Shown piece by piece: positions 5,386 through 54,746 of a stretch of DNA of 64,000 nt. Made by a program: the position numbers and the translations under genes. Each line of letters begins with the position of its first letter. The stretch's first letter is position 1. This stretch comes from Dehalococcoidia bacterium (GTDB lineage: Bacteria; Chloroflexota; Dehalococcoidia; Dehalococcoidales; JAUYDJ01), in assembly GCA_020353235.1 (NCBI GenBank), contig CP070693.1:758624-822623 (forward strand), written 5' to 3'. The notes beneath the pieces were generated by a model. It had not been told where the DNA came from, did no database searches, and saw only the letters and a list, made by a program, of their open reading frames with translations.

Positions 5386-5452
5386 TGATTCCCTCCATTA
5401 ACCAGTTTTGAACCCAAAAATGCTACGGTAAAAACCTCAGGGGCTACCTCAT

Positions 5453-5480
5453 ATTTTAGACAAAATAGTTAAAAAGTCAA
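5453..5480 (-). promoter_or_regulatory. sigma70-like promoter for the NEW3/ABC-2 operon
   Basis: On the minus strand: TTGACT, 16 nt, TAAAAT, about 65 nt upstream of the ATG at 5385. Confidence 0.4.
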
Positions 5481-5503
5481 CTGCTAACCATTTTTTCTAT
5501 TTT

Positions 5504-11601: not shown

Positions 11602-11611
11602 AGGTAAGAAA

Positions 11612-12787
11612 ATGAAACAAGCGGTAATTCTAGCGGCTGGTGAGGGACAGAGACTGAGGCCATTTACCGCCACCAAGCCCAAGGTAATGCTGACCATAGC
11701 CGGCAAGCCGATACTGCAGTATGTGGTTGAGTCACTCGCCCGGCGGGGGATTCGCAACATTGTGCTCGTCGTCGGCTACCGCCGGCAGCAGATATTTGAC
11801 AGTGTCGGCTCGGGGGAGGAACTGGGGGTGGAGATAACCTATGTCACCCAGGAAAAGCAGCTGGGTACCGCCCATGCCCTCGCCCAGGCAAAGGCTAAGG
11901 TTGATAAAGAGTTTCTGGTTCTGCCCGGCGACAATCTGATTGACGCCGACACCATTGCCTGCCTTGAGAGCCTGACGCCGGATGCCATGCTGGTGAAGAG
12001 GGTGGATAACCCCCTGAGATACGGTGTGGTAACCCTGGCCGAAAGCGCGGTCAAGGATATCACCGAGAAGCCCAAGGAAGCCGCCAGCAATATCGTCAAT
12101 ACCGGTATCTATGCCTTTACCCGGAAAATCTTTGATTTTATTGAGTCCGAGCTGGATATTCCCGATGTCCTCAACAAAATGATTGCCCAGGGCCATCAAG
12201 TCAGGGCTAGAGAAACCGACAGCACCTGGCTGGACGTAGCCTACCCCTGGGATATATTAAGCCTGAACAGCATCGTCCTGCCGCGAATCCCGGCCAGCCT
12301 GGGAGGTATCATTGAGACCGGCGCTTCGCTAAAGGGGCTGGTCTCGGTAGGTAAAGATACGGTGATAAGGTCAAACTGCTACATCTCCGGTCCGGTGGTT
12401 ATCGGCACCGGCTGTGAGATTGGGCCCAACGCCTGCATTCTGCCCGCCACCAGTATCGGCAACAATGTGGTTATCTCACCCTTCACCGAGATAAAAAACA
12501 GCGTCATTGGCAACGATGTCAGCCTGGGGCCAGGCTGCTTCATCCAGGACTCGGTTATTGACCGGGGGAGTATCATCGAAGGGCAATTCACCGCCTTCAG
12601 CCGTCAGGCTGAGGTCAAGATTGACGATGAGCACCACTCGGTCAGTGTCGGGGCAATGCTCGGCGAGGACTGCCAGATTGGCAGCGGCGTGGTGGCCCAG
12701 TCCGGCGTCGTCGTCGGCAATCACAGCCAGATACAGGCCCTGAAGATAATCAGCGGTCGGTTACCCGACCGTAGTCTGGTCATTTAA
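11612..12787 (+). CDS. bifunctional sugar-1-phosphate nucleotidyltransferase/acetyltransferase (GlmU-like), paralogue 2
   Basis: Same architecture (ILAAGEGQRLRPFTATKPK plus hexapeptide repeats). I chose the ATG at 11612 (GAGG SD) over the ORF-track start at 11561, which overlaps paralogue 1. Confidence 0.8.
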   Translation: MKQAVILAAGEGQRLRPFTATKPKVMLTIAGKPILQYVVESLARRGIRNIVLVVGYRRQQIFDSVGSGEELGVEITYVTQEKQLGTAHALAQAKAKVDKEFLVLPGDNLIDADTIACLESLTPDAMLVKRVDNPLRYGVVTLAESAVKDITEKPKEAASNIVNTGIYAFTRKIFDFIESELDIPDVLNKMIAQGHQVRARETDSTWLDVAYPWDILSLNSIVLPRIPASLGGIIETGASLKGLVSVGKDTVIRSNCYISGPVVIGTGCEIGPNACILPATSIGNNVVISPFTEIKNSVIGNDVSLGPGCFIQDSVIDRGSIIEGQFTAFSRQAEVKIDDEHHSVSVGAMLGEDCQIGSGVVAQSGVVVGNHSQIQALKIISGRLPDRSLVI

Positions 12788-14587: not shown

Positions 14588-16186
14588 CTAAGCCTTGCTG
14601 AAGACCTTTCTTATATCGGGGTGAAGGCTGCGACCAATCTTGGCCACCGCCTCGTATCTGAGCTGGTTGAGTTTTCCCTGCTTTTGGGCAAACTCAGCCG
14701 CTGAATAAAGCTTCTCCGGATGCACGAAAATATCATCCACTATTCTAATCGCTTTGGGCACCTGAAAGCCGGTAGGCGAATCTATCCAATCTTCAAGACC
14801 ACCCCTGAGCAGTGAGTCCAGTACCCCCATGGTGTATTCCAGCTTGATATCCTTGAAAGGTGCCCCCTCCCCGATGCCCCCGGTATTCAGTAGATAATAA
14901 TTAAGGTGGGGAAGACCCTTAATTATTTGGTAGAAGATATTGGCATGCTGAGCCAGGTCACCGGCGACAAAGGGGTCATAGAAAAACTCGCTTCTGATTT
15001 GGCCGGCCTTAGTGGGGTCACCTGCCGAAGACTCCATCGCCTGCCCCAGAATCATCAGGGTGGTCGCCTGCTCCTGGGTCAGTTTTGATATGGCCGGAAT
15101 CAACGGTCCCCGGGTAATAAGAATCAGGTTATCTATCTGATCGACATCAATATAACGGCTTGCATGCATAAAATCACTTCTCAGGATAACGGCCCGTCCG
15201 TTGGAGGTCTTTTCCAGATTATAGAAGTCAAAATCACCGTCATCATTGACATGAACATTTTCGCAGACGGTGTCCGGCTTTAACAATCCGTAGAATATCT
15301 CGGTCTGTTCCCCCGGGTTTACCCCTTCGGTTTTAACGAATACTCCCCCTGCCTCAAAGCCGTGAAAGGAGCCGTCAGGCATAAGGACCCCCCCATCATC
15401 CTGGATAAGCCAGGAGCGTTCGTTCCCCTTTCTGGCCAGGATGCGGCAGGTGGTAGTCGTCTTCCCATTAGCACTCAGGGCGACAAGCAGCGTCCGGTTC
15501 AGTTGGTAATCTCCATGTACTGATTGCAGGTAGTCTTCCCGGCAGCCGGCATGCAGGAAGATACCGCCACGCCGGGTCTTGGCTACCCAGTCCTCAGCGG
15601 CAAAGACCCCCTTCTTATACTAACCGATGTAGTTACCATTCCTGATTACCTTGACAAAGCGGCCGCCATCCATCATCGCCAGCCGGATAGTAATATCTTT
15701 CTGAGGTAGGGGCTTAGTTTTATTAGCCTCAAACGCCTCATCAGCGAAGAATATAACATGGTAGGCGGGCTGCTTCACCTCTTGCTTCGCCGGCATAAAG
15801 AGATTTCCCCCGCCGTAGGCGACATGGGCAAAACGCTCCGGGACAATTAACCGGACCACGGTATCGCTGTCCTTGTTGCCCACAATTCTATCAGTGGAAA
15901 TAAGTTTTTCTTTGGCCAGGGCTGCCTCGCACTGGGCTAACAGCTTTTCTTCTTCCTTGCCAAAGGAACAGTCAACGCTGTTCTTGGTAAACATCGCCGA
16001 GCGGGAGCTGGGTTCACTTTCGGCGACAAAATTTCCGTAGGCCGTCTGCCTGACGCCGGGTTGCTTCTCCAGAAGCCTCCGCAACTCGGCCACCGCAGGG
16101 TTGTTGACCAGTCTCTTTTCAGCGATAGCCTTATCCCTGATTCTCTCCGCGGTCCGGACAAACTGCTCCAAATCAAACTTAGCCAC
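14588..16186 (-). pseudogene. pckA: ATP-type PEP carboxykinase-like gene interrupted by a single in-frame TAG (15620..15622)
   Basis: My translation across the gap between ORFs 15620..16279 and 14588..15382 stays in one frame. It reads ...RNGNYIG*YKKGVFAAEDW...HAGC...LSANGKTTTT...NTGGIGEG. That gives 532 codons from a GTG at 16186 (AAGGAG SD 6 nt upstream). Confidence 0.7.
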
Positions 16187-16299
16187 TTCAATCTCCTTAT
16201 CGGGTTTACCGGCCAGAAACAGGTTGATAAGCAACCCGTTAATATTATAGCATATGCTTAGCGCCAGGACTAACCCCAAAATCTCAGGGCAGCGGAATA

Positions 16300-16841: not shown

Positions 16842-17198
16842 ATGGATAGCAAGTGGTGTAGTCGAATTATGCAAGCTACCATGATTGCTCTCGTTCTGGC
16901 GGCAATATGCCAGGAACTGGAAAAGCCGGAAGCGGAAAGAAAGTGGCACGGGAAGGTTGCCGGCTTTGTCCCCTATGACTTCCGCATACCCACCAAAGAA
17001 AAACTGAAAGAAGCCTACTGGAATCCTATGGAGAGACGGGTCTTTACTCCAGAGGTCTTCGGCATTGGCTGGGCAGTCAATTTCTACCGCCTGCTGGAGA
17101 ATATGGGGATAATCAGTCAGGATGTCTCCGAGAAAAGCTTCCTGATGCCGACCAAGTCCATCAAAGAGGTGCTGGAACAGGCTCAGCCAGCCGATTGA
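16842..17198 (+). CDS. hypothetical small membrane protein
   Basis: 118 aa with one N-terminal TM. Its start lies 2 nt after the GNAT stop. The 3' end overlaps convergent mtaB by 38 nt. Confidence 0.45.
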   Translation: MDSKWCSRIMQATMIALVLAAICQELEKPEAERKWHGKVAGFVPYDFRIPTKEKLKEAYWNPMERRVFTPEVFGIGWAVNFYRLLENMGIISQDVSEKSFLMPTKSIKEVLEQAQPAD

Positions 17199-18465
17199 GT
17201 CCCCACAACCCATCCCCGTTAACCCCCCCTAATTCAATCGGCATGAGCCGATTGGCTAAATTGCGCTTACTTCTGATATATACCTTGATGTAGTTATCGG
17301 TATAGCCCGACCACACCCCGTTGGTGCGCTTCTCCCACAAGACAGGGCGTGTCTTACCCCGAAAGCGCTGAGCGAATTCCCGGCTGCTTTCTCTGGCCAG
17401 AGCCAGCATTTTCTGGCTCCGCAGCTGCTTGACTTGGTCGCCGATCTGCCCCGGTAGATGAGACGCTGCCGTCTCCTGGCGCGGGGAGTAAGCAAAGACA
17501 TGAAGGCGGGCAAAGTGCATTCGCCGACAGAAATCATAGCTCTCACTAAATTCAGCCTCCGTCTCACCCGGGAAGCCGACGATAACATCAGTGGTGATGG
17601 CTGCCTCAGGCAGTGAATCCCGAATTAAGGCTAGCGCCTGCTGATAATCAGTCGTAGTATAGCGCCGCTTCATCCGACCCAGCACCGCATCACTGCCACT
17701 CTGCAGGGACAGATGAAAGTGAGGGCACAGTCTTTCATCGGGCCACAGCCCGATAAGCTCAGCGGAGATTTCATAGGGCTGGAGAGAGGACAACCTCAAC
17801 CTATTGACACCGGTGCCGGCCAAGATGTGCTCAATTAACCCCTTTAGATTAACGCCGTTATAGTTATAGGCGCCAATTCTGGTGCCGGTTAACACCACCT
17901 CCCGATAACCATCAGCTACCCTCTGGTTGACTTCGGTAATAATCTGGTCAACCGGCAGGCTCTTCTCCTCCCCCCGCACCAGAGGCACAATACAGTAGGC
18001 ACAATAGTTACCGCAGCCGTCCTGAATCTTGATGAAGGCACGGGTCCTGAAACCGGTATAGCTCCGGCGGACCGGCTCGGGCAGAGCCCGGCGGGGACGG
18101 CAGAGGTAACCGTGCCCCTCAAGCCGGCTGACCAAATCGGCTTTGGCGTTATTGCCCAGCACCAGGTCAACCCCATTAATTTGGGCCAGCTCCTGAGACG
18201 CCCGCTCGGCATAGCAGCCGGTAGCCACCAGTCGGGCATCAGGGTTTTGCCGGTGGGCCCGCCGGAGCAGGTGGCGTGACTTGCTATCGGCAACATGGGT
18301 GACGGTGCAGGTATTCAAGATATAAATATCTGCTTCATCGGCGTCGGCTACCAGCCGGTAGCCAGCGGCGGTCAGCTGCTTAGCCAGGAGCTCAGTCTCT
18401 GCCTGATTGAGCTTGCAACCAATGGTATCCAAGGCAATCTTACTGCCTCTTTGGTCAGTGCTCAT
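17161..18465 (-). CDS. mtaB: tRNA methylthiotransferase, MiaB/MtaB family (radical SAM)
   Basis: 434 aa. N-terminal UPF0004 domain (GCKLNQAETE), radical-SAM CGNYCAYC motif and a C-terminal TRAM-like region. Confidence 0.8.
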   Translation of the reverse strand: MSTDQRGSKIALDTIGCKLNQAETELLAKQLTAAGYRLVADADEADIYILNTCTVTHVADSKSRHLLRRAHRQNPDARLVATGCYAERASQELAQINGVDLVLGNNAKADLVSRLEGHGYLCRPRRALPEPVRRSYTGFRTRAFIKIQDGCGNYCAYCIVPLVRGEEKSLPVDQIITEVNQRVADGYREVVLTGTRIGAYNYNGVNLKGLIEHILAGTGVNRLRLSSLQPYEISAELIGLWPDERLCPHFHLSLQSGSDAVLGRMKRRYTTTDYQQALALIRDSLPEAAITTDVIVGFPGETEAEFSESYDFCRRMHFARLHVFAYSPRQETAASHLPGQIGDQVKQLRSQKMLALARESSREFAQRFRGKTRPVLWEKRTNGVWSGYTDNYIKVYIRSKRNLANRLMPIELGGVNGDGLWGLNRLAEPVPAPL

Positions 18466-26188: not shown

Positions 26189-27571
26189 TCAGCCTGAAGC
26201 CAGGCTCTTGACCATATAATCGCCCTGCGAGCGGTAGCCAAACTCAGTGCGGTAATACTCTTTCGCCCCCACCCCGCTCAGCACCGCTATCACCGGCACC
26301 CGAAACTCCTCAGCGGCAATCCGCTCCGCCTCCCCCAGCAGCGCCTTGCCCAGCCCCTTATGCTGGGCGGCGGCGGTACTCTGCTGACCGAGGGAGACCT
26401 CCGGCCCATAGACATGCAGCTCCCTGATTATAGCCAGATGCCGGTTATTTTCCAGCCCGGCTATCGGCTCGGCCTGGACCCTCATCCGCAGCAGACCGAA
26501 AAGCGTCTCATTTTCATCCTCAAAAGAGAGCAAAATCTCCCTGCCGTTGGAGGCTTCGTAATCCAGCCTGACCATTCTCGGTTCACCTGTTTGCCAGCCG
26601 TTGCGCACCCGGTGCCCGTATTCGCGGCACCGGATACACCGGCACTCAATGGCTCGCTCCCCCATCCGCTGTTTAACCACATCACGCAGCGAGTCCTTCA
26701 AGCCAGCCACTATAAACTTGGGTGGGATGTCACGGAGCACCCTTGAGATGCGGACATACTTGGGCACCGTTAACTTTATGTCAACTATCAGGTTAATCAT
26801 GGTCTCGGCGTCATAGGGCTGGTAACGCCCCTCCCGGTACCACTTCTCCAGTTCGGTGCCGGTGACCACCATCGTCGGGTAAAGCTTCAACCCGTCCGGC
26901 CGGAAACGATGGTCGCTGAACAGCCTCCGGGTCAGTGCTAAATCAATTTCAGGCGTGGCGCCGGGCAGGCCGGGCATCCAGTGATAGTGCACCTTGAAGC
27001 CGTGCTGGCGGAGCAAGGCAGTCGCCCTGACCACTTCACCACTCCCGTGCCCCCGCCCAATCAGCCAGTAGACCTCATCATCCAGCGTCTGCACCCCGAG
27101 CTCCACCCGGGTGGTGCCCAGTTCAAGCATGCCGTCTATTTCCGCCTCCCCGCACCAGTCCGGTCTGGTCTCAATACAAAGCCCGACACAGCGGTGGCTG
27201 GCGGTTTCATTGAGCCACTTGGCCGCTTCCAGGCTGACCGACTGGCTGCCATTCAAGGCATCATAGCAGTCCTTGATGAACTGGTTTTGATAATCCCTGG
27301 GGTAAGCCAGAAAGGTGCCCCCCATTATTATCAGCTCAATCTTATCGGTGGGGTGCCCCATCTCGGTGAGCACTTTCAGCCTCAGCTCAACCTGCTTTCG
27401 AGCGTCATAGCCGCACTGCCGGGCCCGCATCGCCGCCGGCGACTCCGGGGTATAGCTCTGGGGTATATCCAGAAAGGTGGGGCAATAGATGCACTGCCCG
27501 GGGCAAGACATGGGCAGCGTCATCACCGCCACCGGGGTGACCCCGGATATTGTCCTGGTCAATTTCTTCAT
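26189..27571 (-). CDS. elp3: Elp3-type radical-SAM/GNAT tRNA uridine(34) modification enzyme
   Basis: 460 aa. Radical-SAM CPGQCIYC near the N-terminus and a C-terminal GNAT (QHKGLGKALLGEAERIA). This is the architecture of bacterial/archaeal Elp3. Confidence 0.85.
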   Translation of the reverse strand: MKKLTRTISGVTPVAVMTLPMSCPGQCIYCPTFLDIPQSYTPESPAAMRARQCGYDARKQVELRLKVLTEMGHPTDKIELIIMGGTFLAYPRDYQNQFIKDCYDALNGSQSVSLEAAKWLNETASHRCVGLCIETRPDWCGEAEIDGMLELGTTRVELGVQTLDDEVYWLIGRGHGSGEVVRATALLRQHGFKVHYHWMPGLPGATPEIDLALTRRLFSDHRFRPDGLKLYPTMVVTGTELEKWYREGRYQPYDAETMINLIVDIKLTVPKYVRISRVLRDIPPKFIVAGLKDSLRDVVKQRMGERAIECRCIRCREYGHRVRNGWQTGEPRMVRLDYEASNGREILLSFEDENETLFGLLRMRVQAEPIAGLENNRHLAIIRELHVYGPEVSLGQQSTAAAQHKGLGKALLGEAERIAAEEFRVPVIAVLSGVGAKEYYRTEFGYRSQGDYMVKSLASG

Positions 27572-27603
27572 AGTATACTTCCCGGTAACGACAGTTTAAC
27601 AGA

Positions 27604-28266
27604 TTGAAACTGATGACCACAAACGTCTTTGACCAGATTGCCCCCGGCTGGTATAACTTCCGCCACTGGTCCATCTTCCGCAGTGAGCTAGAGGAGTTGG
27701 CGGGGCGGTGGCAGAAAGGGAAACTGCTCAACCTGGGCTGTGCCCACGGGCCGGACTTTCTCCCCTTCCAGTCCCGCTTTGAGCTTTACGGCGCTGACTT
27801 TTCGCCGGAGATGCTCCGCTTTGCCCGGAGATACGCGCAGAAGTTCAAATTCAGTGTCAGTCTGACCCTGGCCGAGGTCAGCCACCTCCCCTACGGCGAT
27901 GAGAGTTTTGACTGGGCAATCTCGGTAGCCACCTATCACCACATAAAAGATAAAGAGCCGCGGCTGGCGGCACTGAGCGAACTAAAACGAATCTTGAAGC
28001 TGGGTGGAGAAGCTTTCATCACGGTATGGAACCACTGGCAACCCCGCTTCTGGTTCCGCCGCAGCGAGATTGCGGTGCCCTGGCGCACCAAGAATAAAAC
28101 CCTTTACCGCTACTACCACCTTTTTTCTTATCCTGAGACGGAGAAGCTGGCCAAACAGGCTGGCTTTCAGGTGTTAAAGTCCTTCCCGGAAAGTGCCTAC
28201 CGTTTTCCGCTGAAGCTCTTCTCGCGCAACATATGCCTGCTGGTGAAGAAGAGCCACGCCGATTAA
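27604..28266 (+). CDS. class I SAM-dependent methyltransferase, Trm9/ALKBH8-like
   Basis: 220 aa. Motifs are VFDQIAPGWYNFRHW, LNLGCAHG (motif I), FDWAISVATYHHI, LGGEAFITVWN and VPW...RYYHLF. The start is TTG 27604 or ATG 27613. Confidence 0.65.
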   Translation: MKLMTTNVFDQIAPGWYNFRHWSIFRSELEELAGRWQKGKLLNLGCAHGPDFLPFQSRFELYGADFSPEMLRFARRYAQKFKFSVSLTLAEVSHLPYGDESFDWAISVATYHHIKDKEPRLAALSELKRILKLGGEAFITVWNHWQPRFWFRRSEIAVPWRTKNKTLYRYYHLFSYPETEKLAKQAGFQVLKSFPESAYRFPLKLFSRNICLLVKKSHAD

Positions 28267-28355
28267 TGCGTTGACAAAGCCGGTGGCTAAGAAATAGGAT
28301 TACCTCAAAGAAGCCTGATGACTAAAAACGGCCGGAAAGGAGCTAGCGTCAAGAG

Positions 28356-28595
28356 ATGATACTAAAAATCAAATGTGCCGAATGTGGCACCGAGGGCAGT
28401 TTATCCCTGACCGACCCGGGCTATCAGGGTCCGTACCGATGCTGGAAGTGTCGGGCGCTCTTCACCATCAAGATAGAGAACAATGAGCTTAAGACCTGCG
28501 AACCGCTTACCGAGGAAGAACTGAAACGACACGAGGAAGAATTAAAGAAACAGCAGGAAATAGACGCACTGAGAGCCAAATTCAAACGGCAATAA
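28356..28595 (+). CDS. small zinc-ribbon protein with a charged helical tail
   Basis: 79 aa with CAEC-x19-CWKC, then a beta-like segment and a K/E-rich helix. A candidate promoter TTGACA-17/18-TAGGAT lies at 28275..28303. Confidence 0.55.
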   Translation: MILKIKCAECGTEGSLSLTDPGYQGPYRCWKCRALFTIKIENNELKTCEPLTEEELKRHEEELKKQQEIDALRAKFKRQ

Positions 28596-28619
28596 GCCCT
28601 AAAAAGACGGAGAAACCAG

Positions 28620-29147
28620 ATGAATAAAAGCAGGAGGATACGGCAGATGCTTATCCCGACTATTGTCATGGGTATAATCGCCCTGGTGCTACTCTACATG
28701 GGCTTTCAGAAGGGGGGCGGGGAACATATTCTCGGTATGAAAACAGCCGGGAATTTACTGGTACAGATAATCCCCTTACTTATCTTTGCCTTTATTATCG
28801 CCGGCATGATTCAGGTCCTGGTTCCGCAGGAATTGATATCCAAGTGGGTGGGGCTGGAATCCGGTTTCCGGGGTTTATTCATTGGCACCCTGCTGGGTGG
28901 TTTAGCCCCGGGCGGCCCCTATGTCAGCTTACCTATCGCCGCCGGACTGTTACGCGCTGGAGCCAGTATCGGCACCATGGTTGCCTTTATGACCGGCTGG
29001 TCACTTTGGGCAGTCAGCCGATTGCCACTGGAAATCGGCATGATGGGCTGGCAATTCACCGTGATTCGCCTTGCCTGTACTTTCTTCTTCCCACCCATCG
29101 CCGGGCTGATTGCCAACCTTTTCTTTTCCCGCGTCAGCCTGACTTGA
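28620..29147 (+). CDS. half-size permease of the YraQ/ArsP (DUF318-type) family
   Basis: 175-aa polytopic protein. It resembles the C-terminal half of the permease at 63074 and onward (GGLAPGGPYVSLPIAAGLL). Confidence 0.5.
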   Translation: MNKSRRIRQMLIPTIVMGIIALVLLYMGFQKGGGEHILGMKTAGNLLVQIIPLLIFAFIIAGMIQVLVPQELISKWVGLESGFRGLFIGTLLGGLAPGGPYVSLPIAAGLLRAGASIGTMVAFMTGWSLWAVSRLPLEIGMMGWQFTVIRLACTFFFPPIAGLIANLFFSRVSLT

Positions 29148-29180
29148 ATCGCGGCATAAAAATTAAAACGAGGAGGTAGC

Positions 29181-29375
29181 ATGCCAGTAGTAATCGTTGA
29201 AATGTGGGAGGGGCGCGCCATTGAGCAGAAGAGACAGCTGGTAAAGGGTATAACCTCAGCCATTGCCGCTATCGGCGTTCCTCCAGAGGCAGTAGAAATT
29301 CTCATTAAAGATAACCCCAAGCACAACTGGGGTATCGGTGGTGAGCTGGCTTCGGAAAAGTTCCCTGACAAATAG
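29181..29375 (+). CDS. 4-oxalocrotonate tautomerase family protein
   Basis: 64 aa. N-terminal Met-Pro (MPVVIVEMWEGR) and length are typical of the 4-OT family. Confidence 0.8.
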   Translation: MPVVIVEMWEGRAIEQKRQLVKGITSAIAAIGVPPEAVEILIKDNPKHNWGIGGELASEKFPDK

Positions 29376-29408
29376 CCGGACTAGCTGCCGATGCCGGGAT
29401 GTTTCTAT

Positions 29409-30089
29409 TTATCGGGCGGAAACACCGGACTTAGCCGGCAATTTCTTGTAGAGATACCCCCACCGGTCAAAGTGGGCTTCTTTTAACTGCTGGAGGCGCC
29501 GCCGGAACGAAGCCGAGCTGATATTTTCCAGACTCATCAATACCGCGTCCTCCCGGTTATCGGTGTAGTAAGCGCGGCGCAAACCGGTGCGGGTGAAGCC
29601 AAACTTGTCATAGAGATTCAGCGCGGCGTCATTAGAGACACGCACCTCAAGGGTAATTAGGCGGGCTTTCAGCTCGGTTGCCTGGTCAATGACTGATATC
29701 AGCAGCAGCTCCCCTATCCCGTGATGGCGGCATTCCTCCCGGACGGCGATGTTGATGAGATGAACCTCACCAGCCATGAACCAGAAGCCGGCAAAACCAA
29801 CCACATACTCCCTCCTGAAAACAGGCACCTCTGCCCCAGCGAGAGGCTCATGGCCAAAGAGACGCTGCACCTGAGATACCAGCCCGGAAAAGACCCTCTC
29901 TGAAATAGCCTTTACTTCGGTTTCCTCAATCGTTCTGCCTTCTTCACCGGCAACTATATAGTGAGCCAGGCGGTTTTTGAGCTCATGCTTAAAGTCAGGC
30001 GGTGGCCACATGGTCGGGAAGGCTTCGCGGTCAATGGCACTGACCTGAGCAATGTCTTCCGGTCCCATTAAACGCAAATAGTAAGCCAT
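29409..30089 (-). CDS. rimI: ribosomal-protein-alanine N-acetyltransferase-like GNAT
   Basis: 226 aa. RimI-like core (HLINIAVREECRHHGIGELLL...TLEVRVSNDAALNLYDKFGF) with an internal insertion. Confidence 0.65.
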   Translation of the reverse strand: MAYYLRLMGPEDIAQVSAIDREAFPTMWPPPDFKHELKNRLAHYIVAGEEGRTIEETEVKAISERVFSGLVSQVQRLFGHEPLAGAEVPVFRREYVVGFAGFWFMAGEVHLINIAVREECRHHGIGELLLISVIDQATELKARLITLEVRVSNDAALNLYDKFGFTRTGLRRAYYTDNREDAVLMSLENISSASFRRRLQQLKEAHFDRWGYLYKKLPAKSGVSAR

Positions 30090-30272
30090 AACTCATTCCG
30101 GAAGTAATTTCAGGATTATTGTAACATACCCACTCTGGCAAGGGCGATTGGCCAAAGCTAACCTTTACTGCCCCGGCTCGTTATATTATATATGCACCGG
30201 GTAACACTGAATTGCAGCTAGACCCAGGCACATTATACAATAGGGCTAAGGTTTAGCTAGGAGGGTTACTAG

Positions 30273-30812
30273 GTGCAAGAGGAGCAGAGCCTCACCCACC
30301 GGGCACGAGAGGGGGACAAAGAGGCTTTTGCACAGCTATATGAGAACTACTTTGATAAGATTTATCGCTATGTGGTTCTCAAAATAGGTAAGGCAGATGC
30401 GGAGGATGTTACCCAGCAGGTCTTCATCAAAGCCCTCCAGGCTATTGCCTCTTTTAAGTGGAAGGGGATACCCTTCTCGGCATGGCTTTTCCGTATCGCC
30501 CATAACCAGGTGGTCGACTATTTGAGAAAGGAAAAAAAGATGGTCAAGGTGCCGCTTAATGAATCATCTTCCCGGAGCGATAGCGACCCGCAGCAAATGG
30601 CGGAGCGCAGCCTGGATATTGAGCGGCTGATTTCAGCCACCCGGCAGCTGACCAGGGCGCAGCGGGAGGTGATCGGTCTGCGCTTTGCCGGTGAGCTATC
30701 AATTGCGGAGACAGCCAGGGTTATGAGCAAGAGTGAGGGTGCCATAAAGGCATTACAGCACAGCGCCATCGCCGCCCTGCGCAAAACAATGTCTGAGGAC
30801 CAGAAACAATGA
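30273..30812 (+). CDS. ECF (sigma-70 family) RNA polymerase sigma factor
   Basis: 179 aa with region 2 (FAQLYENYFDKIYRYV...DVTQQVFIKA) and region 4 (LTRAQREVIGLRF...ETARVMSKSEGAIKALQH). GTG start with an AGGAGGG SD. Confidence 0.85.
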   Translation: MQEEQSLTHRAREGDKEAFAQLYENYFDKIYRYVVLKIGKADAEDVTQQVFIKALQAIASFKWKGIPFSAWLFRIAHNQVVDYLRKEKKMVKVPLNESSSRSDSDPQQMAERSLDIERLISATRQLTRAQREVIGLRFAGELSIAETARVMSKSEGAIKALQHSAIAALRKTMSEDQKQ

Positions 30813-31795
30813 ACCGGGATAAAGAACTAGCCAACATTCTGAATGACTGCCTGGAGCGATTGCTTCGGGGAGAGACGATAGAGCAGTGTCTCCAGGACTA
30901 CCCGCAATATGCGGGGGAAATTGAGCCGCTGCTCCAGACGGCTATGGCGGCCAAAAAGGCATTGGCTATCCAGCCCGGCGTTGAGTTTAAAGCCAGAGCC
31001 AGGTACCAGTTTCAATCAATGCTGAAAGAAGCCAAACCCAGGCGAGGGCTGCCCGTCCTGAGCTGGCAGCCGCGCTGGGCACCCGCCCTGGCTATTGGAC
31101 TCGCCTTTTTGCTCGCCGGAAGCGGCACCGTAGCCGCCGCCGGTAACAGCATGCCCGATAGCCCCCTCTACCCGGTGAAACTGGCGACCGAGCAGGCACA
31201 ACTGGGATTAACCTTTTCTGATATCGGCAAAGCCAAACTCTATGTCGAGCTAGCTGATAAGAGAGTCGCCGAGATTGCCTATATGGTTAACCAGGGCAAG
31301 CCCGAAGAGATAGAGGCAACTGTTCAGCGGCTGAACAATCACCTGTCCATGGTAGTCAGCCTGTCCCTCGTCGAGGGGGCGGCAGCCGGGGAGCCACCCG
31401 CTGCAGAGGCCGCCCCCCGCCTAATGCCGGCACCAGCCGCGGGAGTAGCCGAAGCGCCCACACCCCAGCCCGTCGAGGCGCCGGCACCCCAGCTAGCCGA
31501 GACACCAGCGGCCGAACCAGCACCTGAGGAGGCCGCCAAAGAGCTCCCGGAACAGGCTGAGGCCAAAGCTAAACTCAAGGAACTCCTCAAGCAGAATAAA
31601 AACATTCACCCGGCGGTACTGCGTGCCCTGCTGGATGAAGTCCCTGACTCAGCCAAGCCAGCCCTGCTGCAGGCAATCGCCGACGCCGAGGATAACTACC
31701 AGAAAGCCCTGGATGCTCTAGATGAGGAGGATGATGACGACGAGGGAAAGAAGCATCACGGCGATGATGATGAAGATGATGAGGAGGATGACTAG
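30809..31795 (+). CDS. putative anti-sigma factor / DUF5667-like membrane protein
   Basis: 328 aa. Its start overlaps the sigma gene stop (ATGA). It has a single TM, a PDSPLYPVKLATE segment, a P/A/E-rich linker and an extremely acidic tail (DEEDDDDEGKKHHGDDDEDDEEDD). Confidence 0.55.
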   Translation: MNRDKELANILNDCLERLLRGETIEQCLQDYPQYAGEIEPLLQTAMAAKKALAIQPGVEFKARARYQFQSMLKEAKPRRGLPVLSWQPRWAPALAIGLAFLLAGSGTVAAAGNSMPDSPLYPVKLATEQAQLGLTFSDIGKAKLYVELADKRVAEIAYMVNQGKPEEIEATVQRLNNHLSMVVSLSLVEGAAAGEPPAAEAAPRLMPAPAAGVAEAPTPQPVEAPAPQLAETPAAEPAPEEAAKELPEQAEAKAKLKELLKQNKNIHPAVLRALLDEVPDSAKPALLQAIADAEDNYQKALDALDEEDDDDEGKKHHGDDDEDDEEDD

Positions 31796-31889
31796 CCGCT
31801 GGGCAATTTCCAATAAATTCACAGGCCGGCACCAACCTGGTGCTGACCTTTAACATTATATAAAGCAGGCAGCGAGGAGGTAAACATTA

Positions 31890-32633
31890 ATGAAAAAGGG
31901 ATTGTTTTTAGTCCTTGGTCTGGTATCGGTGCTGGCCATAGTCACGCTGGGAGGCTGTGCCGGAACAAGATCACCGGACGTAACTGGGTTCTTCAACACC
32001 CAGCAGGAAGGGGTCTGGGTTAGCGGCACCGGAAAGGTGACGGTGGCGCCCGACATTGCCACCCTGAGGTTGGGCATTGAATCCCAAAAGGCGACCGTAG
32101 CCGAGGCCCAATCAGCGGCCACCGGAGCCATGAACCAGGTAATGGATGCCCTGAAAGACAATGGCGTGGCGGATAAAGATATCCAGACGCAGTATTTCAG
32201 CATTCAGAAGGTAACCAGATGGGACGACGAAAAATACCAGGAGGTTGTCATCGGCTACCGGGTAACCAATATGGTGACTGCCAAGATAAGGGATATTGCC
32301 AAGGCGGGAACAGTTATTGATGCCGTCGCCCTAGCGGGTGGAGACCTCACCCGGATAGACAGCATCAGCTTCTCGGTTGATGACCCCTCCGCCTATTATG
32401 AGGAAGCCAGGGGAAAGGCGATGGCTGACGCCAAAGCCAAGGCGGAGCAACTGGCTAAGCTGGGTGGCATCACTCTGGGCACGCCGACCTACATCTCGGA
32501 GAGCATGGTAATGCCGTCTCCTATCTACCCGGTTAGAGCCGAAGCCGCCGCCCCGGTAATGGCGGAAACACCAATCAGTGCCGGCGAGACGGAGATCAGC
32601 CTTACCGTCCAGGTAGTCTATGCCATTAAATAG
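31890..32633 (+). CDS. SIMPL/DUF541-family lipoprotein
   Basis: 247 aa. Lipobox LGGCAG. 'VSGTGKVTVAPDIATLRLGI' and the C-terminus 'ISAGETEISLTVQVVY' are typical of SIMPL-domain proteins. Confidence 0.7.
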   Translation: MKKGLFLVLGLVSVLAIVTLGGCAGTRSPDVTGFFNTQQEGVWVSGTGKVTVAPDIATLRLGIESQKATVAEAQSAATGAMNQVMDALKDNGVADKDIQTQYFSIQKVTRWDDEKYQEVVIGYRVTNMVTAKIRDIAKAGTVIDAVALAGGDLTRIDSISFSVDDPSAYYEEARGKAMADAKAKAEQLAKLGGITLGTPTYISESMVMPSPIYPVRAEAAAPVMAETPISAGETEISLTVQVVYAIK

Positions 32634-32685
32634 CATTGATTAGCTGACAAGTTGACCGCCAGGTGCTATCATCTGGGGAGGAACG

Positions 32686-33066
32686 ATGAAAAAGTATCTG
32701 ATACTGGCTGGCGCGATGATATTAGCCCTGACGCTGGTGACGGGATGCGGCAGTGCCGAAACCTACTCTGATGCGGAGCAGGCGATAGACATCGGTGTCA
32801 ACCAGGAATTCACCATTGCCCTCAATTCCAATCCCACCACCGGCTATAGCTGGCAGGAAAGCTACGATGAGAGCGTTCTGGAACTGGTAGACAAGAGCTA
32901 CCGCCCCGGCGCAGAGGCGGAGCCGGAGGTCGTCGGCGCTGGTGGCACGGAATACTTCCAGTTCAAGGCGCTACAGCCCGGTGAGACCGAGCTCGTCATG
33001 ACCTATAAGCGGGGCTGGGAAGAAGAGTACCTGGAACAGTTGGTGTTCACCGTCAATATAGAATAA
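32686..33066 (+). CDS. chagasin-family (I42) peptidase inhibitor lipoprotein
   Basis: 126 aa. Lipobox LVTGCGS and the family motif NPTTGYSW. Confidence 0.75.
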   Translation: MKKYLILAGAMILALTLVTGCGSAETYSDAEQAIDIGVNQEFTIALNSNPTTGYSWQESYDESVLELVDKSYRPGAEAEPEVVGAGGTEYFQFKALQPGETELVMTYKRGWEEEYLEQLVFTVNIE

Positions 33067-33071
33067 AAGAA

Positions 33072-33093
33072 GGGGGTCTCTTTAGAGACCCCC
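33072..33093. terminator. bidirectional intrinsic terminator between the chagasin-like gene and ruvB
   Basis: Perfect 9-bp stem GGGGGTCTC / GAGACCCCC with a 4-nt loop. On the minus strand it is followed by TTCTTTTATTC. Confidence 0.75.
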
Positions 33094-33127
33094 TCACTCT
33101 ATCTATATTGCCCATCCCCCCAAGAAT

Positions 33128-34162
33128 TTAGCCGCTCTCATTCCACAGGGTGGGCTGAGGCGGTTGCCCCTTGCTATAAGGGATACCGAGGTGCTGATAG
33201 GCGAGCTGAGTGGCTAATCGGCCGCGGGGAGTCCGCTCCAGAAAACCGAGCTGCAGCAGATAGGGCTCATAAACATCCATAATGGTATCCGATTCCTCGC
33301 TGATAGCGGCGGCAATCGTCTCCAGCCCCACCGGACCGCCGTTAAACTTGTCCACAATGGTATGCAGCAGCTTGTGGTCCACCTCGTCCAGTCCGATTTG
33401 GTCGACCTCAAGTTTGGCCAGAGCCTCAACCGCCACCGACCGAGTGACGACGCCGTCGGCCCTCACCTGAGCATAGTCTCTAACCCGCTTGAGCAGCCGA
33501 TTGGCTACGCGGGGCGTACCCCGGGCACGACAGGCTACCTCCCCCAGCCCGCTATCTTCGGCTTTTATCTGCAGAATACCGGTGGAACGCTGCAGAATTT
33601 CCTGTATCGCCGCCTGGTCATAGAAGTCGAGGCGGTAGACGGCACCAAAGCGGCCCCGGAGAGGCGGGCTAAGCAGGGCAAAACGAGTGGTCGCCCCCAC
33701 CAGGGTAAAAGCGGGCAGGCTCAGCCTCAGACTCTTTGCCCCCGGCCCCTTGCCGATAACAATATCCAGGGCAAAGTCCTCCATCGCCAGATAGAGCAGC
33801 TCCTCTACCGTCCGATTGAGGCGGTGGACTTCATCAATGAAGAGGACATCATGGCTCTGGAGATTGGTTAAAATAGCCGCCAGATCGCCAGTGCGCTCTA
33901 TCGCCGGACCGGAAGTAACCCGTATGTTTACCCCCAGCTCGGTAGCGATGATATAGGCCAAAGTGGTCTTACCCAAGCCGGGCGGACCGTAGAGCAAGAT
34001 ATGGTCCAGAGCCTCCCCCCTCCCCTTGGCCGCCGTGACGGCGATGTTCAGGTTCTCCTTAATTCGGGCCTGGCCAACAAATTCGTCAAGGTGACGGGGG
34101 CGGAGGCTAACATCAAGCGGAATATCCTCAGCACTGCTTTTGCCGGATACAATGCGGTCTAT
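33128..34162 (-). CDS. ruvB: Holliday junction branch-migration helicase RuvB (apparent ATA start)
   Basis: Walker [10 protein letters not shown], Walker B FIDEVHR and a winged-helix C-terminus. The conserved N-terminal 55 aa (IDRIVSGK...[12 protein letters not shown]...[12 protein letters not shown]) are in frame upstream of the ORF-track TTG at 33997. Confidence 0.85.
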
Positions 34163-34220
34163 CTCTGCCCTCCTTAATAAACGACATTATTATACCACAA
34201 CCCCAGCCACCAAAAATAAA

Positions 34221-34245
34221 GTGAGCCGCCCGTTGGGCGGCTCAC
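34221..34245 (-). terminator. intrinsic terminator downstream of rpoC
   Basis: 10-bp stem GTGAGCCGCC / GGCGGCTCAC with a 5-nt loop. On the minus strand it is followed by TTTATTTTTGG, 28 nt after the rpoC stop. Confidence 0.8.
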
Positions 34246-34272
34246 TTGCTTATAACCAAGCTCGCCAGGATT

Positions 34273-37200
34273 CTAGCCAGCCTGTGATTCTTCATCCTCC
34301 TCATCGGCATCTGCCTCCAGTGTATCTTCCGCTTCCGGCTCCTGAGCCCCGGCTACCTCCGACATCTCTTCGCAGTCTTCTCTCTTTTCTGCCTCACCTG
34401 CCTCCAGTTCCCCCTCCACTTCGATAATCGCCTCAGGCTCCTCTTCTGAAGCCGGATAGCGAGCCGGTATCAGCTTGCCAATGATGACATTCTCTTTGAG
34501 CCCGACCAGTCTATCCACCTTGCCGGAAATGGCTGCCTCGGTAAGGACACGGGTGGTCTCCTGGAAGGAAGCTGCCGCCAGCCAGCTATCGCTGCTCAGC
34601 GAGGCTCTGGTTATCCCAACCAGTACGGTGTGGGCAGTGGCTGGCTCACCGCCTTCCGCCAGCACCTTGGCATTGGTATCTTCATAGCGGTAGCGGTCAA
34701 CCAGCTCCCCGGGCACCAGCTCAGTGTCACCCGAGGAATCAATACGCACCCGGGAAAGCATCTGATGGACGATAACCTCAATATGCTTATCGTTTATGTT
34801 TACTCCCTGGGAGCGATATACTTTTTGCACCTCATTCACCAGGTACTGCTGGACCGCTTCTGCACCCAGAATACGCAGTATATCATGCGGGTTAATCGGG
34901 CCATCGGTTAGCTGCTCCCCGGCCTTAACCAGGTCTCCGTCCTGAACACAGACATGGGCTGCCGCCGGCACCACATACTCCCGCTCTTCGCGCTCTTCGT
35001 ATTTGATAACCAACTGTTTGTCGCCAACCTCCACCTCACCAGTAACACGAGCTACAACAGGCTGAACTTCAGTAGTGACTGCCTTCGTTTTGGATTTAGT
35101 CTTGGCTTTGGACTTAGACTTAGTTTCTGCCGCCGGTGCGGCGAGCACCGTGCCGATATCCACTTGTTGGCCATCCTTTACCATAACTTTAACACCCGCC
35201 GGCAGCGAATATTCGTCGCGGAATACCTCAGAGCGGGCAATCCCGACTAACTTACCTTCCTCATCCTGAACTACCTCAGCCAACCCATCTATTTCCGATA
35301 TAATAGCCTGACCCTTGGGCGACCTTGCCTCAAAGAGCTCTTCCACCCGGGGTAGACCACTGGTTATGTCAAGCCCAACAACACCACCGGTGTGGAAGGT
35401 GCGCAATGTCAATTGGGTACCCGGCTCACCGATACTCTGGGCGGCAATGATACCGACCGCAGTGTTGGTGGCAACCGTTCCCCCGCGAGCCAGATCCCGA
35501 CCGTAACAATACTGGCAGCAACCCTGCCTGGACTGACAGGTAAGCGTAGAGCGGACGTGGACCCTGGTTACCCCGGTAGCGATTATCTCCTGCGCCTTCA
35601 GTTCATCAATTTCCTCGTTGCGCTCAACGATCGTCTTTTTAGTGCGGGGGTTAACCACGTTGCTGGCGGCCAAGCGGCCAATGATTCGCTCCTCAAGCGA
35701 GGCCAGCAACTCTCCTGCCTTGGTTTCAAATACCCATACGCCCTCAGTGGTACCGCAATCAACCTGCTGGGTAATCACATCCTGGGCAACATCAATCAGC
35801 CGCCGGGTAAGATAACCACTACCCGATGTCCGCAGGGCGGTATCGGCTAGACCTTTACGCGCACCGTGAGTGGAAATAAAATACTCCAGTACGGTGAGTC
35901 CCTCACCGAGGCTTGACTTAATAGGAAAGTCAATAATTCTGCCCGCCGGGTCAGTCATCAGACCACGCATACCCGCCATCTGTCGAATCTGGGAGATGTT
36001 ACCCTTTGCCCCGGATGCCGCCATCATATAGACCCCGCCGTAGCGATCCAGAGACTCAGAGATGGCATCGGTAACCTTGTCCACCGTTTCTGTCCATACC
36101 TCAACGACCCCGTTATAGCGTTCGTCTTCGGTAATCAGACCGCGATGGTACTGGCTTTCAATGATGGCCGTCTTTTCCTCCGCCTGCTCCAGGAGCTTGG
36201 CTTTCTCTTCGGGGATCTTGATATCACTCATGGCGATGGTCGTCCCCGATTTAGTGGCATAGTGAAAACCGAGATGCTTGAGGGAGTCCAGTACCGCCGC
36301 CATATCCTGATGACTCAGCGTTTTACAGCAGTCGGCTACTATTTGCTTGATGACCCCCTTATCAACTGTCTTATCATAATGCCTAACCTCGGGCGGTAAG
36401 ACCTCATTGAAGATAATCCGCCCGATGCTGGTCTTAATTCTCTGTCCATCTCCGTTCCTGACCTCAAGTTCAGCCCTGAGGTCAACAATGCCCAGTTCAT
36501 AAGCAAGCTTGGCTTCCTCAAAGCTGCTAAAGATGGCACCTTCCCCTTTAACGCCGGGCGTGACCGTGGTCAGGTAATAGCAGCCGAGAACCATGTCCAG
36601 GGTCGGGCTTACCAGTGGCTCGCCGCTGCTTGGTATCAGCATGTTGTGAACGCTGAGCATCATCTCGCGTGCCTCTTTAATGGCTGCTTTGGAGAGCGGG
36701 ACATGAACCGCCATCTGGTCACCATCAAAGTCAGCATTAAAGGCGGCACATACCAGGGGGTGAATCTGAATGGCACTGCCATCAATAAGCACCGGTTCGA
36801 ATGCCTGAATACTGAGCCGGTGCAGGGTTGGTGCCCGATTGAGCAACACCGGGCGTTCCTTGATGACATCTTCCAGTATGTCATACACCTCCGGCCGGCC
36901 CCTCTCCACCAGCCTCCGGGCGCTCCTAATATTATGAGCCAGCCCTTCCATCATCAGACGGTGCATAATGAACGGTTTAAATAGTTCCAGAGCCATTCGC
37001 CGCGGTAGCCCGCACTGGTTAAGCTTGAGTTCCGGGCCAACCACGATGACTGACCGTCCACTATAATCAACCCGCTTGCCCAGCAAATTCTGGCGAAAGC
37101 GGCCTTGCTTGCTACGGAGCATGTCGGAGAGCGACTTCAGGCGATGATTACCACTCACCGAAGCCGCCCGTCCTCTCTTTTCATTATCAATAAGGGAATC

Positions 37201-38277
37201 TACTGCTTCCTGAAGCATCCGTTTCTCGTTACGGACGATAATATCGGGAGCACCGATTTCCAGTAAGTGACGCAGTCGGTTATTACGATTAATGACGCGG
37301 CGATAGAGGTCATTGAGGTCACTGGTGGCAAAACGACCGCCATCCAGTTGAACCATCGGCCTAAGGTCGGGTGGCAACACCGGCAGTATGGTCAGAACCA
37401 TCCATTCCGGCTTATTACTGCTGCGCCGGAGAGCCTCCACCACCTGTAACTGCTTTGATGCCTTCCGGTTACGCTGTCCCGAAGTAGAATGAATCTCCAA
37501 GAGCAGCTCATTGTGCAGTTCATCAAGATTAATATCCTTAATCAGCTGGAAAATAGCTTCCGCCCCCATTCCCGCCTCAAAAACCGAACCGCATTTCTGC
37601 TTGAGCTCGTGGTACTGGTTTTCGGTAAGCAATGCCCGTACCCGCAGGTCTTTTAGCTGCTCCACTTCAATGGAATACTGTTCCCCAAGTTTCGCCTTTT
37701 CCTCAGCCCCACTTCGCCGGAACTGGTTTACCTTCTCTACTTCCGCCCCTGCCTTCTCCATCTCGGTAATCTTGTCCTCTACCGCCTTTTCCTGCTCGGC
37801 TATTGCCTGGCGGCCGCTCTCCTCAAGCTGCTTAATCACCTCCTGACGGGCGTCGTCATTTATTGAGGTGATGATATAGCGGGAAAAGTATAAAACCCGT
37901 TCCAGGCTCCGTGGCGAGAGGTCAAGCAGCAGCCCCAATCGGCTGGGTATGCCCTTGGCAAACCAGATATGACTCACCGGACAGGCCAGTTCAATATGCC
38001 CCATCCGCTCCCGACGCACCTTGGAGCGGGCGACCTCAACACCGCACTTATCGCAGATAATCCCTTTATAGCGTATCTTTTTGTATTTACCGCAGGCACA
38101 CTCAAAGTCTTTTATCGGGCCAAAGATGCGCTCGCAAAAAAGCCCGTCCCGCTCCGGTTTTAAAGTACGGTAGTTGATTGTCTCCGGCTTAGTTACCTCA
38201 CCATAGGACCAGTTTCTAATCTGCTCCGGTGAAGCTAGGGAAATGCGAACGGCATCAAAATCACTGACTTCAAACAT
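34273..38277 (-). CDS. rpoC: DNA-directed RNA polymerase subunit beta-prime
   Basis: 1334 aa from the ATG at 38277 ([28 protein letters not shown]). Contains the NADFDGD catalytic motif. The start overlaps the rpoB stop (ATGTTTGA). Confidence 0.95.
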
Positions 38278-46672: not shown

Positions 46673-46676
46673 CCAA

Positions 46677-47804: not shown

Positions 47805-47806
47805 GC

Positions 47807-48679: not shown

Positions 48680-48688
48680 GCTAGCTCC

Positions 48689-50035: not shown

Positions 50036-50044
50036 TTTCAGCTC

Positions 50045-52252: not shown

Positions 52253-52289
52253 ATCTAATCTACTCCCCCATTTTGGTTAACTCTGGAGC

Positions 52290-54254: not shown

Positions 54255-54296
54255 TCTGTTACTCCTCCACTCTTTGGTTTTTGCCATATTAATTAA

Positions 54297-54743: not shown

Positions 54744-54746
54744 GTT

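Follow-up and report, generated by a model that had tools for sequence, protein, structure and literature searches.

A head-to-head gene pair for Elp3 and a Trm9-like methyltransferase in Dehalococcoidales points to a likely Elongator-type wobble-uridine modification module in bacteria

Introduction

The Elp3/Trm9 pathway of wobble-uridine modification is textbook knowledge in eukaryotes. Here we analyze a 64,000-nucleotide stretch of genomic DNA from a Dehalococcoidia bacterium (contig CP070693.1; hereafter the window, with positions counted from its first letter), in which a gene for the radical S-adenosylmethionine (SAM) enzyme Elp3 lies head to head with a gene for a Trm9-like class I SAM-dependent methyltransferase. 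Modifications of the 5-methoxycarbonylmethyluridine (mcm5U) type at the wobble position, and Trm9 itself, are taken to be features of eukaryotes and, to a limited degree, of archaea. We examined the identity of the two proteins, the conservation of their pairing, and the explanations that could account for it.

Results

The Elp3 and methyltransferase genes diverge from a short common region

The features of the locus are as follows.

26189..27571, minus strand: Elp3, 460 amino acids (aa), short-N-terminus bacterial type; predicted 5-carboxymethyluridine-34 (cm5U34) synthase, from TIGR01211, Pfam and alignment to the Dehalococcoides mccartyi enzyme, DmcElp3
27572..27612, no strand: divergent intergenic region common to the Elp3 and methyltransferase genes, read from the sequence
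27604..28266, plus strand: Trm9-like class I SAM methyltransferase, 220 aa from a TTG start; predicted tRNA cm5U34 carboxyl O-methyltransferase
28356..28595, plus strand: zinc-ribbon protein (CxxC...CxxC), 79 aa, directly 3' of the methyltransferase gene; a possible, unproven accessory

These open reading frames (ORFs) lie where the first-pass annotation of this DNA, made from the letters alone, had placed them. It gave the spacing between the two start codons as about 33-42 nt; the measured distance is 32 bp if the methyltransferase begins at the TTG at 27604, and 41 bp if it begins at an in-frame ATG at 27613. The ATG would give a protein of 217 aa beginning MTTNVFDQIA, an N-terminus that resembles those of homologs (e.g., MTANIFNQIA at locus L006), and it is probably the true start. 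A scan for sigma-70-like sites, scored by consensus match only, returned 3 sites against 1.3 expected; one, a weak plus-strand site (TTGTCC-18-TATACT, 27550-27579), overlaps the first codons of Elp3.

The host had been assumed to be bacterial, and the window bears this out. Among its genes are rpoB/rpoC, holA, mutL, recJ, ruvB and pcrA of bacterial type, alongside fabF, plsY, greA, mtaB and a carbon monoxide dehydrogenase/acetyl-CoA synthase (CODH/ACS; Wood-Ljungdahl) cluster, and the closest genomes are Dehalococcoidales metagenome-assembled genomes (MAGs).

The window encodes a full-length Elp3

The 460-aa protein has the complete radical SAM, Radical_SAM_C and KAT/GNAT architecture and scores above the curated family cut-off (TIGR01211, 567.8 bits against a cut-off of 350, model positions 57-522), with Pfam domains Radical_SAM (PF04055, E 1e-16) and Radical_SAM_C. 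Residues 1-457 align with crystallised DmcElp3 (5L7J, E 5e-199) at 65% identity, and the protein also aligns well with archaeal and eukaryotic Elp3 structures. The Elp3 architecture that had been read from the CPGQCIYC motif and a C-terminal GNAT domain was therefore confirmed end to end.

The residues expected of an active enzyme are kept. Cysteines C23, C27 and C30 of the Fe-S motif (CX3CX2C, CPGQCIYC) align to those of DmcElp3, and the prokaryotic zinc-binding triad C310/C312/C315 is present. In a global alignment, the acetyl-CoA pocket and active-site residues highlighted for DmcElp3 (K77, K193, E386 and Y441; PMC6367351) are identical in the window protein (K77, K193, E384 and Y439). Like DmcElp3, the window Elp3 does not carry a basic N-terminal extension, and its TIGR01211 match begins at model position 57. 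DmcElp3 binds tRNA, which triggers its acetyl-CoA hydrolysis, and an archaeal Elp3 forms cm5U in vitro by itself (PMC6367351, PMC7663514). With 65% identity and conserved catalytic residues, the window Elp3 is predicted to make cm5U34.

A point of nomenclature concerns this family. The NCBI name for TIGR01211, 'tRNA uridine(34) 5-carboxymethylaminomethyl modification ... Elp3', has been carried into Dehalococcoides annotations; in the literature the Elp3 product is 5-carboxymethyl (cm5U), and 5-carboxymethylaminomethyluridine (cmnm5U) is the product of MnmEG.

The methyltransferase carries the functional residues of Trm9

Mutagenesis of Saccharomyces cerevisiae Trm9 (ScTrm9) offers a set of positions against which a candidate can be read. 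The substitutions R29A, D72A, H116A, W145A, W168A, R241A, Y243A and N271A abolish or strongly reduce activity, and H115A does so in part (Létoquart et al., PMC4678810). We mapped these positions through the S. cerevisiae and Yarrowia lipolytica numbering in Table 2 of that paper and HMMER alignments of the window methyltransferase to the Y. lipolytica chain. All eight are occupied by the same residue (R20, D65, H113, W142, W160, R169, Y171 and N209, respectively), and the counterparts of H115 and Q149 are likewise present (H112 and Q146). Motif I of the class I fold reads LNLGCAHG, and D65, which aligns to D83 of Y. lipolytica Trm9 (YlTrm9) and D72 of ScTrm9, is invariant in the family alignment.

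Conservation across the family was measured in 119 full-length cluster representatives, no more than 50% identical to one another, drawn from a library of 1.84 billion proteins. Seven of the eight essential positions are conserved at 81-98%: D65 and R169 (98% each), W142 (96%), W160 (94%), N209 (88%), R20 (82%, with a further 15% K) and Y171 (81%). The exception is H113, the equivalent of H116, which is His in 55% and Cys in 28%; the adjacent H112 is kept in 92%.

Similarity to Trm9 extends to longer motifs. The window sequence FDWAISVATYHHI parallels FDFAISIAVIHHF of YlTrm9, and the same holds for GGEAFITVWN (DGRALIYVWA), IAVPW (VMVPW), LYRYYHLF (RYRYYHLY) and NFRHW (NTRYKPW). The first-pass annotation had pointed to motif resemblances of this kind with yeast Trm9; set against the sequence of the solved Y. 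lipolytica enzyme, they proved to be real.

Similarity to Trm9 continues beyond the Rossmann core

In a single-sequence search of the PDB, the uncharacterised methyltransferase PH0226 (1ve3) and YlTrm9 (chain 5cm2_Z) tied as best matches at E 1e-10, the latter aligning over residues 42-193 (E 1.1e-10). They tied again, at 103 bits, when the search was made with a profile of 81 sequences. The extent of the profile alignment differed: YlTrm9 was matched over 17-204, and PH0226 over 17-137, which is the Rossmann core only. In both types of search, then, only Trm9 of the two top matches aligned along nearly the full length of the methyltransferase. Escherichia coli CmoM, UbiE and UbiG scored far below Trm9 with the family profile.

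Because a single-sequence search with the C-terminal 83 aa did not return Trm9 at a significant level (E 0.93), we built a profile of the region that follows the core (residues 138-216, 60 sequences) and searched it against 177,635 distinct PDB sequences. The sole significant match was YlTrm9 (5cm2_Z, E 4.1e-6, profile positions 1-72); the next match (E 0.026) covered only a generic helix-strand element. As judged by this profile, the substrate-side C-terminal region is homologous only to Trm9 among PDB sequences.

Structure prediction agreed with these alignments. An AlphaFold model from the single sequence was unusable (predicted local distance difference test, pLDDT, 42.6), and the 81-sequence alignment was used instead, giving an AF2 model with pLDDT 92.5 and a predicted template modelling (TM) score of 0.90. 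When this model was compared with the PDB by Foldseek, 5cm2_Z ranked third among 1,460 significant matches, behind two uncharacterised structural-genomics methyltransferases, and had the lowest root-mean-square deviation (2.6 Å) and the highest target-normalised TM score (0.78) among the leading matches.

Database names for the family are mixed. Many homologs with 56-79% identity are annotated by JGI as 'tRNA (uracil-5-)-methyltransferase TRM9', and others as UbiE, '2-methoxy-6-polyprenyl-1,4-benzoquinol methylase' or just SAM-dependent methyltransferase. Nearly all matches of the methyltransferase profile in a database of 5.8 billion proteins were Dehalococcoidia proteins. Six homologs with 61-69% identity (P0277, P0309, P0316, P0333, P0344 and P0354) are ~350 aa long and also contain PF04304 (DUF454/YbaN, an inner-membrane family), either an odd fusion for a tRNA enzyme or read-through in gene calling.

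The functional residues, the C-terminal profile and the full-length alignment support a provisional grouping of the window methyltransferase with Trm9/ALKBH8 rather than with generic class I enzymes, as the first-pass annotation had proposed. Given the match to Trm9 mutagenesis data and the conserved gene linkage described below, we infer that it is a Trm9 ortholog and a probable tRNA cm5U34 O-methyltransferase.

The pairing is conserved across Dehalococcoidales and beyond

Conservation of the adjacency in relatives was a test set beforehand. With the window Elp3 as query, a search of GTDB at one genome per species gave 269 relatives. We used the 80 best (Elp3 69-92% identical), nearly all of them Dehalococcoidales or Dehalococcoidia MAGs. 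Sixty-three loci had at least 1 kb upstream of Elp3 and were eligible. The methyltransferase gene was upstream of Elp3 in 59 of them (94%), always on the opposite strand, with a gap below 500 bp in 55 loci and a median gap of 152 bp. One gene was inserted between the two in four loci (an MFS transporter in L006). Other neighbors served as a control: those beyond the methyltransferase recurred in 21-48% of loci, and those on the far side of Elp3 in no more than 1 of 64. On one 1.23-Mb contig (L081), the genes around the pair are entirely different. Identities of the two proteins to their window counterparts co-vary (Pearson 0.88, n=66), as expected if both are inherited together.

The pairing includes the organism of the crystallised enzyme. 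In D. mccartyi CP019867.1, the gene for an Elp3 with 98% identity to the 5L7J sequence is separated by 43 bp from a divergent methyltransferase gene (L094:5283-5957; 224 aa), whose product is 52% identical to that of the window and has the motifs FRH, HH, VWN..Q, VPW, RYY and RNICLL in common with it. The order of genes at this locus (L094, 562164-575543) is RpoC-RuvB-QueH-GNAT-zinc ribbon-ArsP permease-Trm9-like<>Elp3, and the block RpoC...RuvB...GNAT...ArsP...methyltransferase<>Elp3 is recognisably syntenic with 26189-38313 of the window; QueH is another tRNA enzyme of the wobble position (queuosine).

Distant methyltransferase subfamilies, with 32-47% identity to the window protein, had an Elp3 neighbor in 6 of 8 cases:

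L085, methyltransferase 47% identical: Elp3 divergent, 52-bp gap, 520 aa with ELP3_N
L090, 45%: Elp3 divergent, 29-bp gap, 463 aa; GGDEF neighbor
L092, 38%: Elp3 divergent, 30-bp gap, 519 aa
L093, 32%: Elp3 divergent, 119-bp gap, 625 aa
L084, 39%: Elp3 fragment, divergent, with one ORF between
L091, 41%: Elp3 3.2 kb upstream; GatD/GatE neighbors
L086/L087, 39-40%: no Elp3 within 6 kb
L088/L089, 35%: no Elp3 seen on short contigs with ~1.5 kb upstream

The full-length Elp3 neighbors score 537-680 bits with TIGR01211, and several carry the archaeal ELP3_N extension. The GGDEF neighbor marks L090 as bacterial, and GatD/GatE mark L091 as archaeal. The unlinked 40%-identical homolog of L086 and L087 directly follows a THUMP-domain gene and, in one contig, is ~5 kb from the tRNA thiolation genes ThiS/SAMP2 and ATP_bind_3 (Ncs6/TtuA-like), probably in an archaeal context (L086:1-1164 and 5413-5940; L087:4677-5204). 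A scan of viral contigs with Elp3 found nothing, and a metagenome scan with one distant methyltransferase homolog returned only its own contig.

Adjacency is thus conserved in Dehalococcoidales, in D. mccartyi and in most of the distant subfamilies. Both genes are intact and encode the catalytic residues expected of their families, and their head-to-head arrangement has persisted across a very wide evolutionary span. The 32-41-bp control region that they share, together with the deeply conserved order, suggests co-regulation and co-inheritance as a unit. The distribution suggests that Elp3 and Trm9 travel together and that in archaea Trm9 reaches well beyond the two orders for which it had been reported; the unit has probably been exchanged between archaea and bacteria.

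A zinc-ribbon protein accompanies the pair in some genomes

Trm9 depends on Trm112 in eukaryotes and in Haloferax (for the latter, PMC6144793), and we looked for a counterpart. The zinc-ribbon gene downstream of the methyltransferase recurs on the same strand in 18 loci, D. mccartyi included (L001, L012, L014, L022, L024-L028, L035, L037, L042, L049, L066, L070, L076, L078 and L094:4423-4650, minus strand), at distances of 37-1734 bp and in one case 4972 bp, and is often directly adjacent. Its product (~72 aa; 79 aa in the window) has invariant cysteines C7, C10, C29 and C32 and the consensus KIKCPxC..EGS.SL...YQGPYRCWKCR.LF.IK.ENNELKSCEPLSQEEF. In the window, the gene has its own promoter-like site by consensus match (28271-28300).

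Searches with this protein gave generic zinc-ribbon matches only, with neither the Trm112p Pfam family nor a Trm112 structure in the PDB among them, and we rejected its identification as Trm112 at the level of sequence. It is missing from the distant methyltransferase contexts. A second candidate, the 53-aa ORF that follows the most Trm9-like prokaryotic homolog, was also rejected, as it encodes a hydrophobic peptide. The zinc-ribbon protein might be an accessory factor.

Other genes of the window

Another anticodon-loop tRNA modification enzyme, the ms2t6A37 methylthiotransferase MtaB (17161-18465, minus strand; TIGR01579, 430 bits), is encoded ~9 kb from the pair. Further away, two tandem paralogs of the archaeal-type bifunctional sugar-1-phosphate nucleotidylyltransferase/acetyltransferase (TIGR03992 Arch_glmU) occupy 10399-11601 and 11561-12787 on the plus strand (527 and 349 bits), followed by glmS at 12790-14571. 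A 264-aa ORF at 14588-15382 (minus strand) matches only the C-terminal half of phosphoenolpyruvate carboxykinase (model positions 263-512 of 525) and could be a split or truncated gene or an ORF with a wrongly set start; the ORF adjoining it (15620-16279, minus strand) has no strong family match. A same-strand block at 42294-59400 (minus strand) forms a complete-looking Wood-Ljungdahl gene cluster: formate dehydrogenase alpha, NuoF- and NuoE-like proteins, the CODH/ACS methyltransferase, ACS gamma, alpha/beta and delta, the CODH catalytic subunit, FolD and formate-tetrahydrofolate ligase.

Discussion

A predicted two-step wobble-uridine module

The residues of the methyltransferase, its C-terminal homology and the conserved adjacency support the reading of these genes as an Elp3-Trm9 pair, which the first-pass annotation had put forward. 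We consider it likely that Elp3 and the methyltransferase form, in this member of the Dehalococcoidales, a two-step module of the kind known from archaea and eukaryotes (Elongator), converting the tRNA wobble uridine to cm5U and then to mcm5U. In the first step, Elp3 would use its [4Fe-4S] cluster, a SAM-derived radical and acetyl-CoA to place a carboxymethyl group on C5 of U34, giving cm5U34. In the second, the methyltransferase would move the methyl group of SAM to the cm5U carboxylate, giving mcm5U34, which might be thiolated further to mcm5s2U. By analogy with Trm9, which methylates the cm5U carboxylate and positions it through R29 and H116 (PMC4678810), R20 and H113 would position the carboxylate, and H112, N209 and W142 the uracil. 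Both genes would be controlled from the one short divergent region.

Several observations weigh against this reading. The methyltransferase matches only the generic families Methyltransf_11/25/31/23/12 in Pfam and reaches the cut-off of no NCBIfam model, the best being UbiE/MenG, far below its cut-offs; uncharacterised methyltransferases (PH0226, 1ve3; and 2p8j) equal or slightly exceed Trm9 by total score. Searches that rank by total score (Pfam, NCBIfam, phmmer/hmmsearch of the PDB, and Foldseek) do not tell Trm9 apart from generic methyltransferases, since most of the score comes from the Rossmann core. Four of the 63 eligible Dehalococcoidales loci have other genes upstream of Elp3 in place of the methyltransferase (dnaE in L079), and the L086-L089 homologs likewise had no Elp3 nearby. 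A crude regular-expression scan of the window and of 94 loci (0.9 Mb in all) turned up nothing resembling the Trm112 motif. According to a 2020 review, xcm5U34 lacked direct evidence in Dehalococcoides, and the in vitro activity of DmcElp3 was very weak (PMC7663514). Lastly, free cm5U was not detected as an intermediate in Haloferax (PMC6144793), so that the substrate and the order of steps in prokaryotes are not fully settled.

This last point also speaks for the strongest alternative, in which the methyltransferase does modify U34 or what Elp3 makes of it, but something other than plain mcm5U results: an Elongator-like yet chemically distinct route that yields a different ester or derivative, acts only after 2-thiolation, or uses some intermediate in place of free cm5U. 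When Haloferax trm9Δ and trm112Δ strains were examined, no cm5U was detected and the tRNA was no substrate, which implies unknown intermediates (PMC6144793). One distant homolog lies ~5 kb from SAMP2/ThiS and Ncs6-like ATP_bind_3 genes and directly after a THUMP protein, and the H116 equivalent is Cys in 28% of family representatives. The window methyltransferase itself, however, has every residue of the Trm9 set, among them the two histidines, R20, R169, Y171 and N209, which in Trm9 are modelled to bind the cm5U carboxylate and uracil (PMC4678810), and Haloferax volcanii Trm9 (HvoTrm9) does make mcm5U (PMC6144793). We regard a distinct end product as unlikely.

A second explanation would make the methyltransferase an ordinary class I enzyme for small molecules or other substrates, of the UbiE/MenG kind, and its adjacency to Elp3 an accident of synteny with no functional link. 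The generic family matches, the ties in total score and the source annotations as UbiE or benzoquinol methylase are what such an enzyme would show. They stand against a linkage kept in 94% of loci, compared with 0-48% for the other neighbors tested, that extends to subfamilies at 32% identity and to archaeal-type Elp3; against a C-terminal region specific to Trm9; and against the family-wide conservation of Trm9 functional residues outside the SAM-binding core. An accidental pairing is very improbable on these grounds. That bacterial Elp3 is not a tRNA enzyme in vivo but, for example, a protein acetyltransferase or a radical SAM enzyme of other function, with the methyltransferase serving that process, would fit the missing basic N-terminal extension, weaker tRNA binding and very weak in vitro activity of DmcElp3 (PMC7663514, PMC6367351) and the same short N-terminus in the window, but we find it extremely unlikely, as DmcElp3 hydrolyses acetyl-CoA specifically in response to tRNA, with no such effect of histone or tubulin peptides (PMC6367351), all Elp3 catalytic residues are conserved, and the partner carries the uracil- and carboxylate-binding residues of Trm9.

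Within the two-step module, a more far-reaching proposal can be framed. Dehalococcoidales and at least one other bacterial lineage might run a self-contained Elp3-Trm9 pathway in which mcm5(s2)U34 replaces the MnmEG products without a canonical Trm112, the ~72-aa zinc ribbon serving as a non-homologous Trm112-like activator. We hold this full version to be speculative and unlikely; if it were true, the activator would make a three-gene bacterial module.

Novelty and significance

A 2017 review of Trm112 placed Trm9 orthologs only in Sulfolobales and Halobacteriales and detected no bacterial homologs of Trm112-partner methyltransferases (PMC5372719); archaeal Trm9 activity was characterised in Haloferax in 2018 (PMC6144793). 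The papers and reviews consulted on DmcElp3 do not mention the neighboring methyltransferase (leaving aside Glatt et al. 2016, which may mention it), and a full-text search found no literature joining Trm9 or Elp3 with Chloroflexi. The framing of the first-pass annotation calls for two corrections: clustering of the two genes in Sulfolobus (PMC2584109) and activity of Haloferax Trm9 (PMC6144793) had already been described, and many of these bacterial proteins already bear the TRM9 name at JGI. The bacterial pair itself appears to be undescribed in the searchable literature. Because that clustering and archaeal Trm9 had been reported, what is new is a bacterial case of a known pathway.

For the sole bacterial clade that the Elongator field credits with Elp3, xcm5U34 has had no direct demonstration (PMC7663514). 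The methyltransferase gene lies beside that of DmcElp3, the structural model for Elongator, and the pair gives a concrete prediction of the end product, mcm5U, turning the question of whether Dehalococcoides tRNAs contain xcm5U into a direct two-gene experiment. As a minimal set of two proteins it also lends itself to rebuilding the full route from cm5U to mcm5U, in E. coli or in vitro, and it is a natural case in which to ask whether Trm9 needs Trm112 to function.

Comparison with known systems

The window Elp3 is, by its residues, an ortholog of DmcElp3 (5L7J, 5L7L and 6IA6), with the same short N-terminus and the same Fe-S, zinc and acetyl-CoA residues, in an organism of another genus within Dehalococcoidales. 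The usual bacterial route to xm5U34, MnmE-MnmG (with MnmC), modifies the same wobble uridines, also at C5, and serves decoding in the same way, but does so with unrelated enzymes and chemistry (GTPase/FAD/folate, giving cmnm5U or mnm5U). PMC9433433, citing Glatt 2016, reports that Elp3 in bacteria goes along with an absence of MnmE/MnmG; the 64-kb window, which says little about the whole genome, contains neither mnmE nor mnmG. Analogous in chemistry is E. coli CmoM (8JOZ/4HTF), another class I methyltransferase of bacteria, which forms an ester on the side-chain carboxyl group of U34 (cmo5U34 to mcmo5U34), the same tRNA position. CmoM belongs to another pathway (CmoA/CmoB) that has no link to Elp3, and scores 51.8 bits with the family profile against 103 for Trm9, over the core region only.

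With Trm9-Trm112 (S. cerevisiae; Y. lipolytica, 5CM2) and the methyltransferase domain of human ALKBH8 with TRMT112, the window methyltransferase has in common the class I fold, the residues required for activity, the C-terminal region and a 2.6-Å superposition, as well as a predicted action downstream of Elp3. It differs in being bacterial and compact (217-220 aa, without the yeast insertions), in its identity of only ~27% to YlTrm9, in having no Trm112 partner identified by our crude motif scan of the window and the 94 loci, and in the physical pairing of its gene with Elp3, which eukaryotes do not have.

A further parallel, drawn here from the literature on Haloferax and Sulfolobus solfataricus, lies in archaea. 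There, too, a stand-alone prokaryotic Elp3 is accompanied by a Trm9 ortholog: Haloferax mcm5U depends on HvoTrm9 (HVO_1032) and Trm112, which together make it (PMC6144793), and clustering of the Elp3 and Trm9 genes in S. solfataricus was noted in 2008 (PMC2584109). Distant relatives of the window methyltransferase adjoin archaeal-type Elp3 with ELP3_N. What sets the window pair apart is that it is bacterial, and the rule across Dehalococcoidales (59/63).

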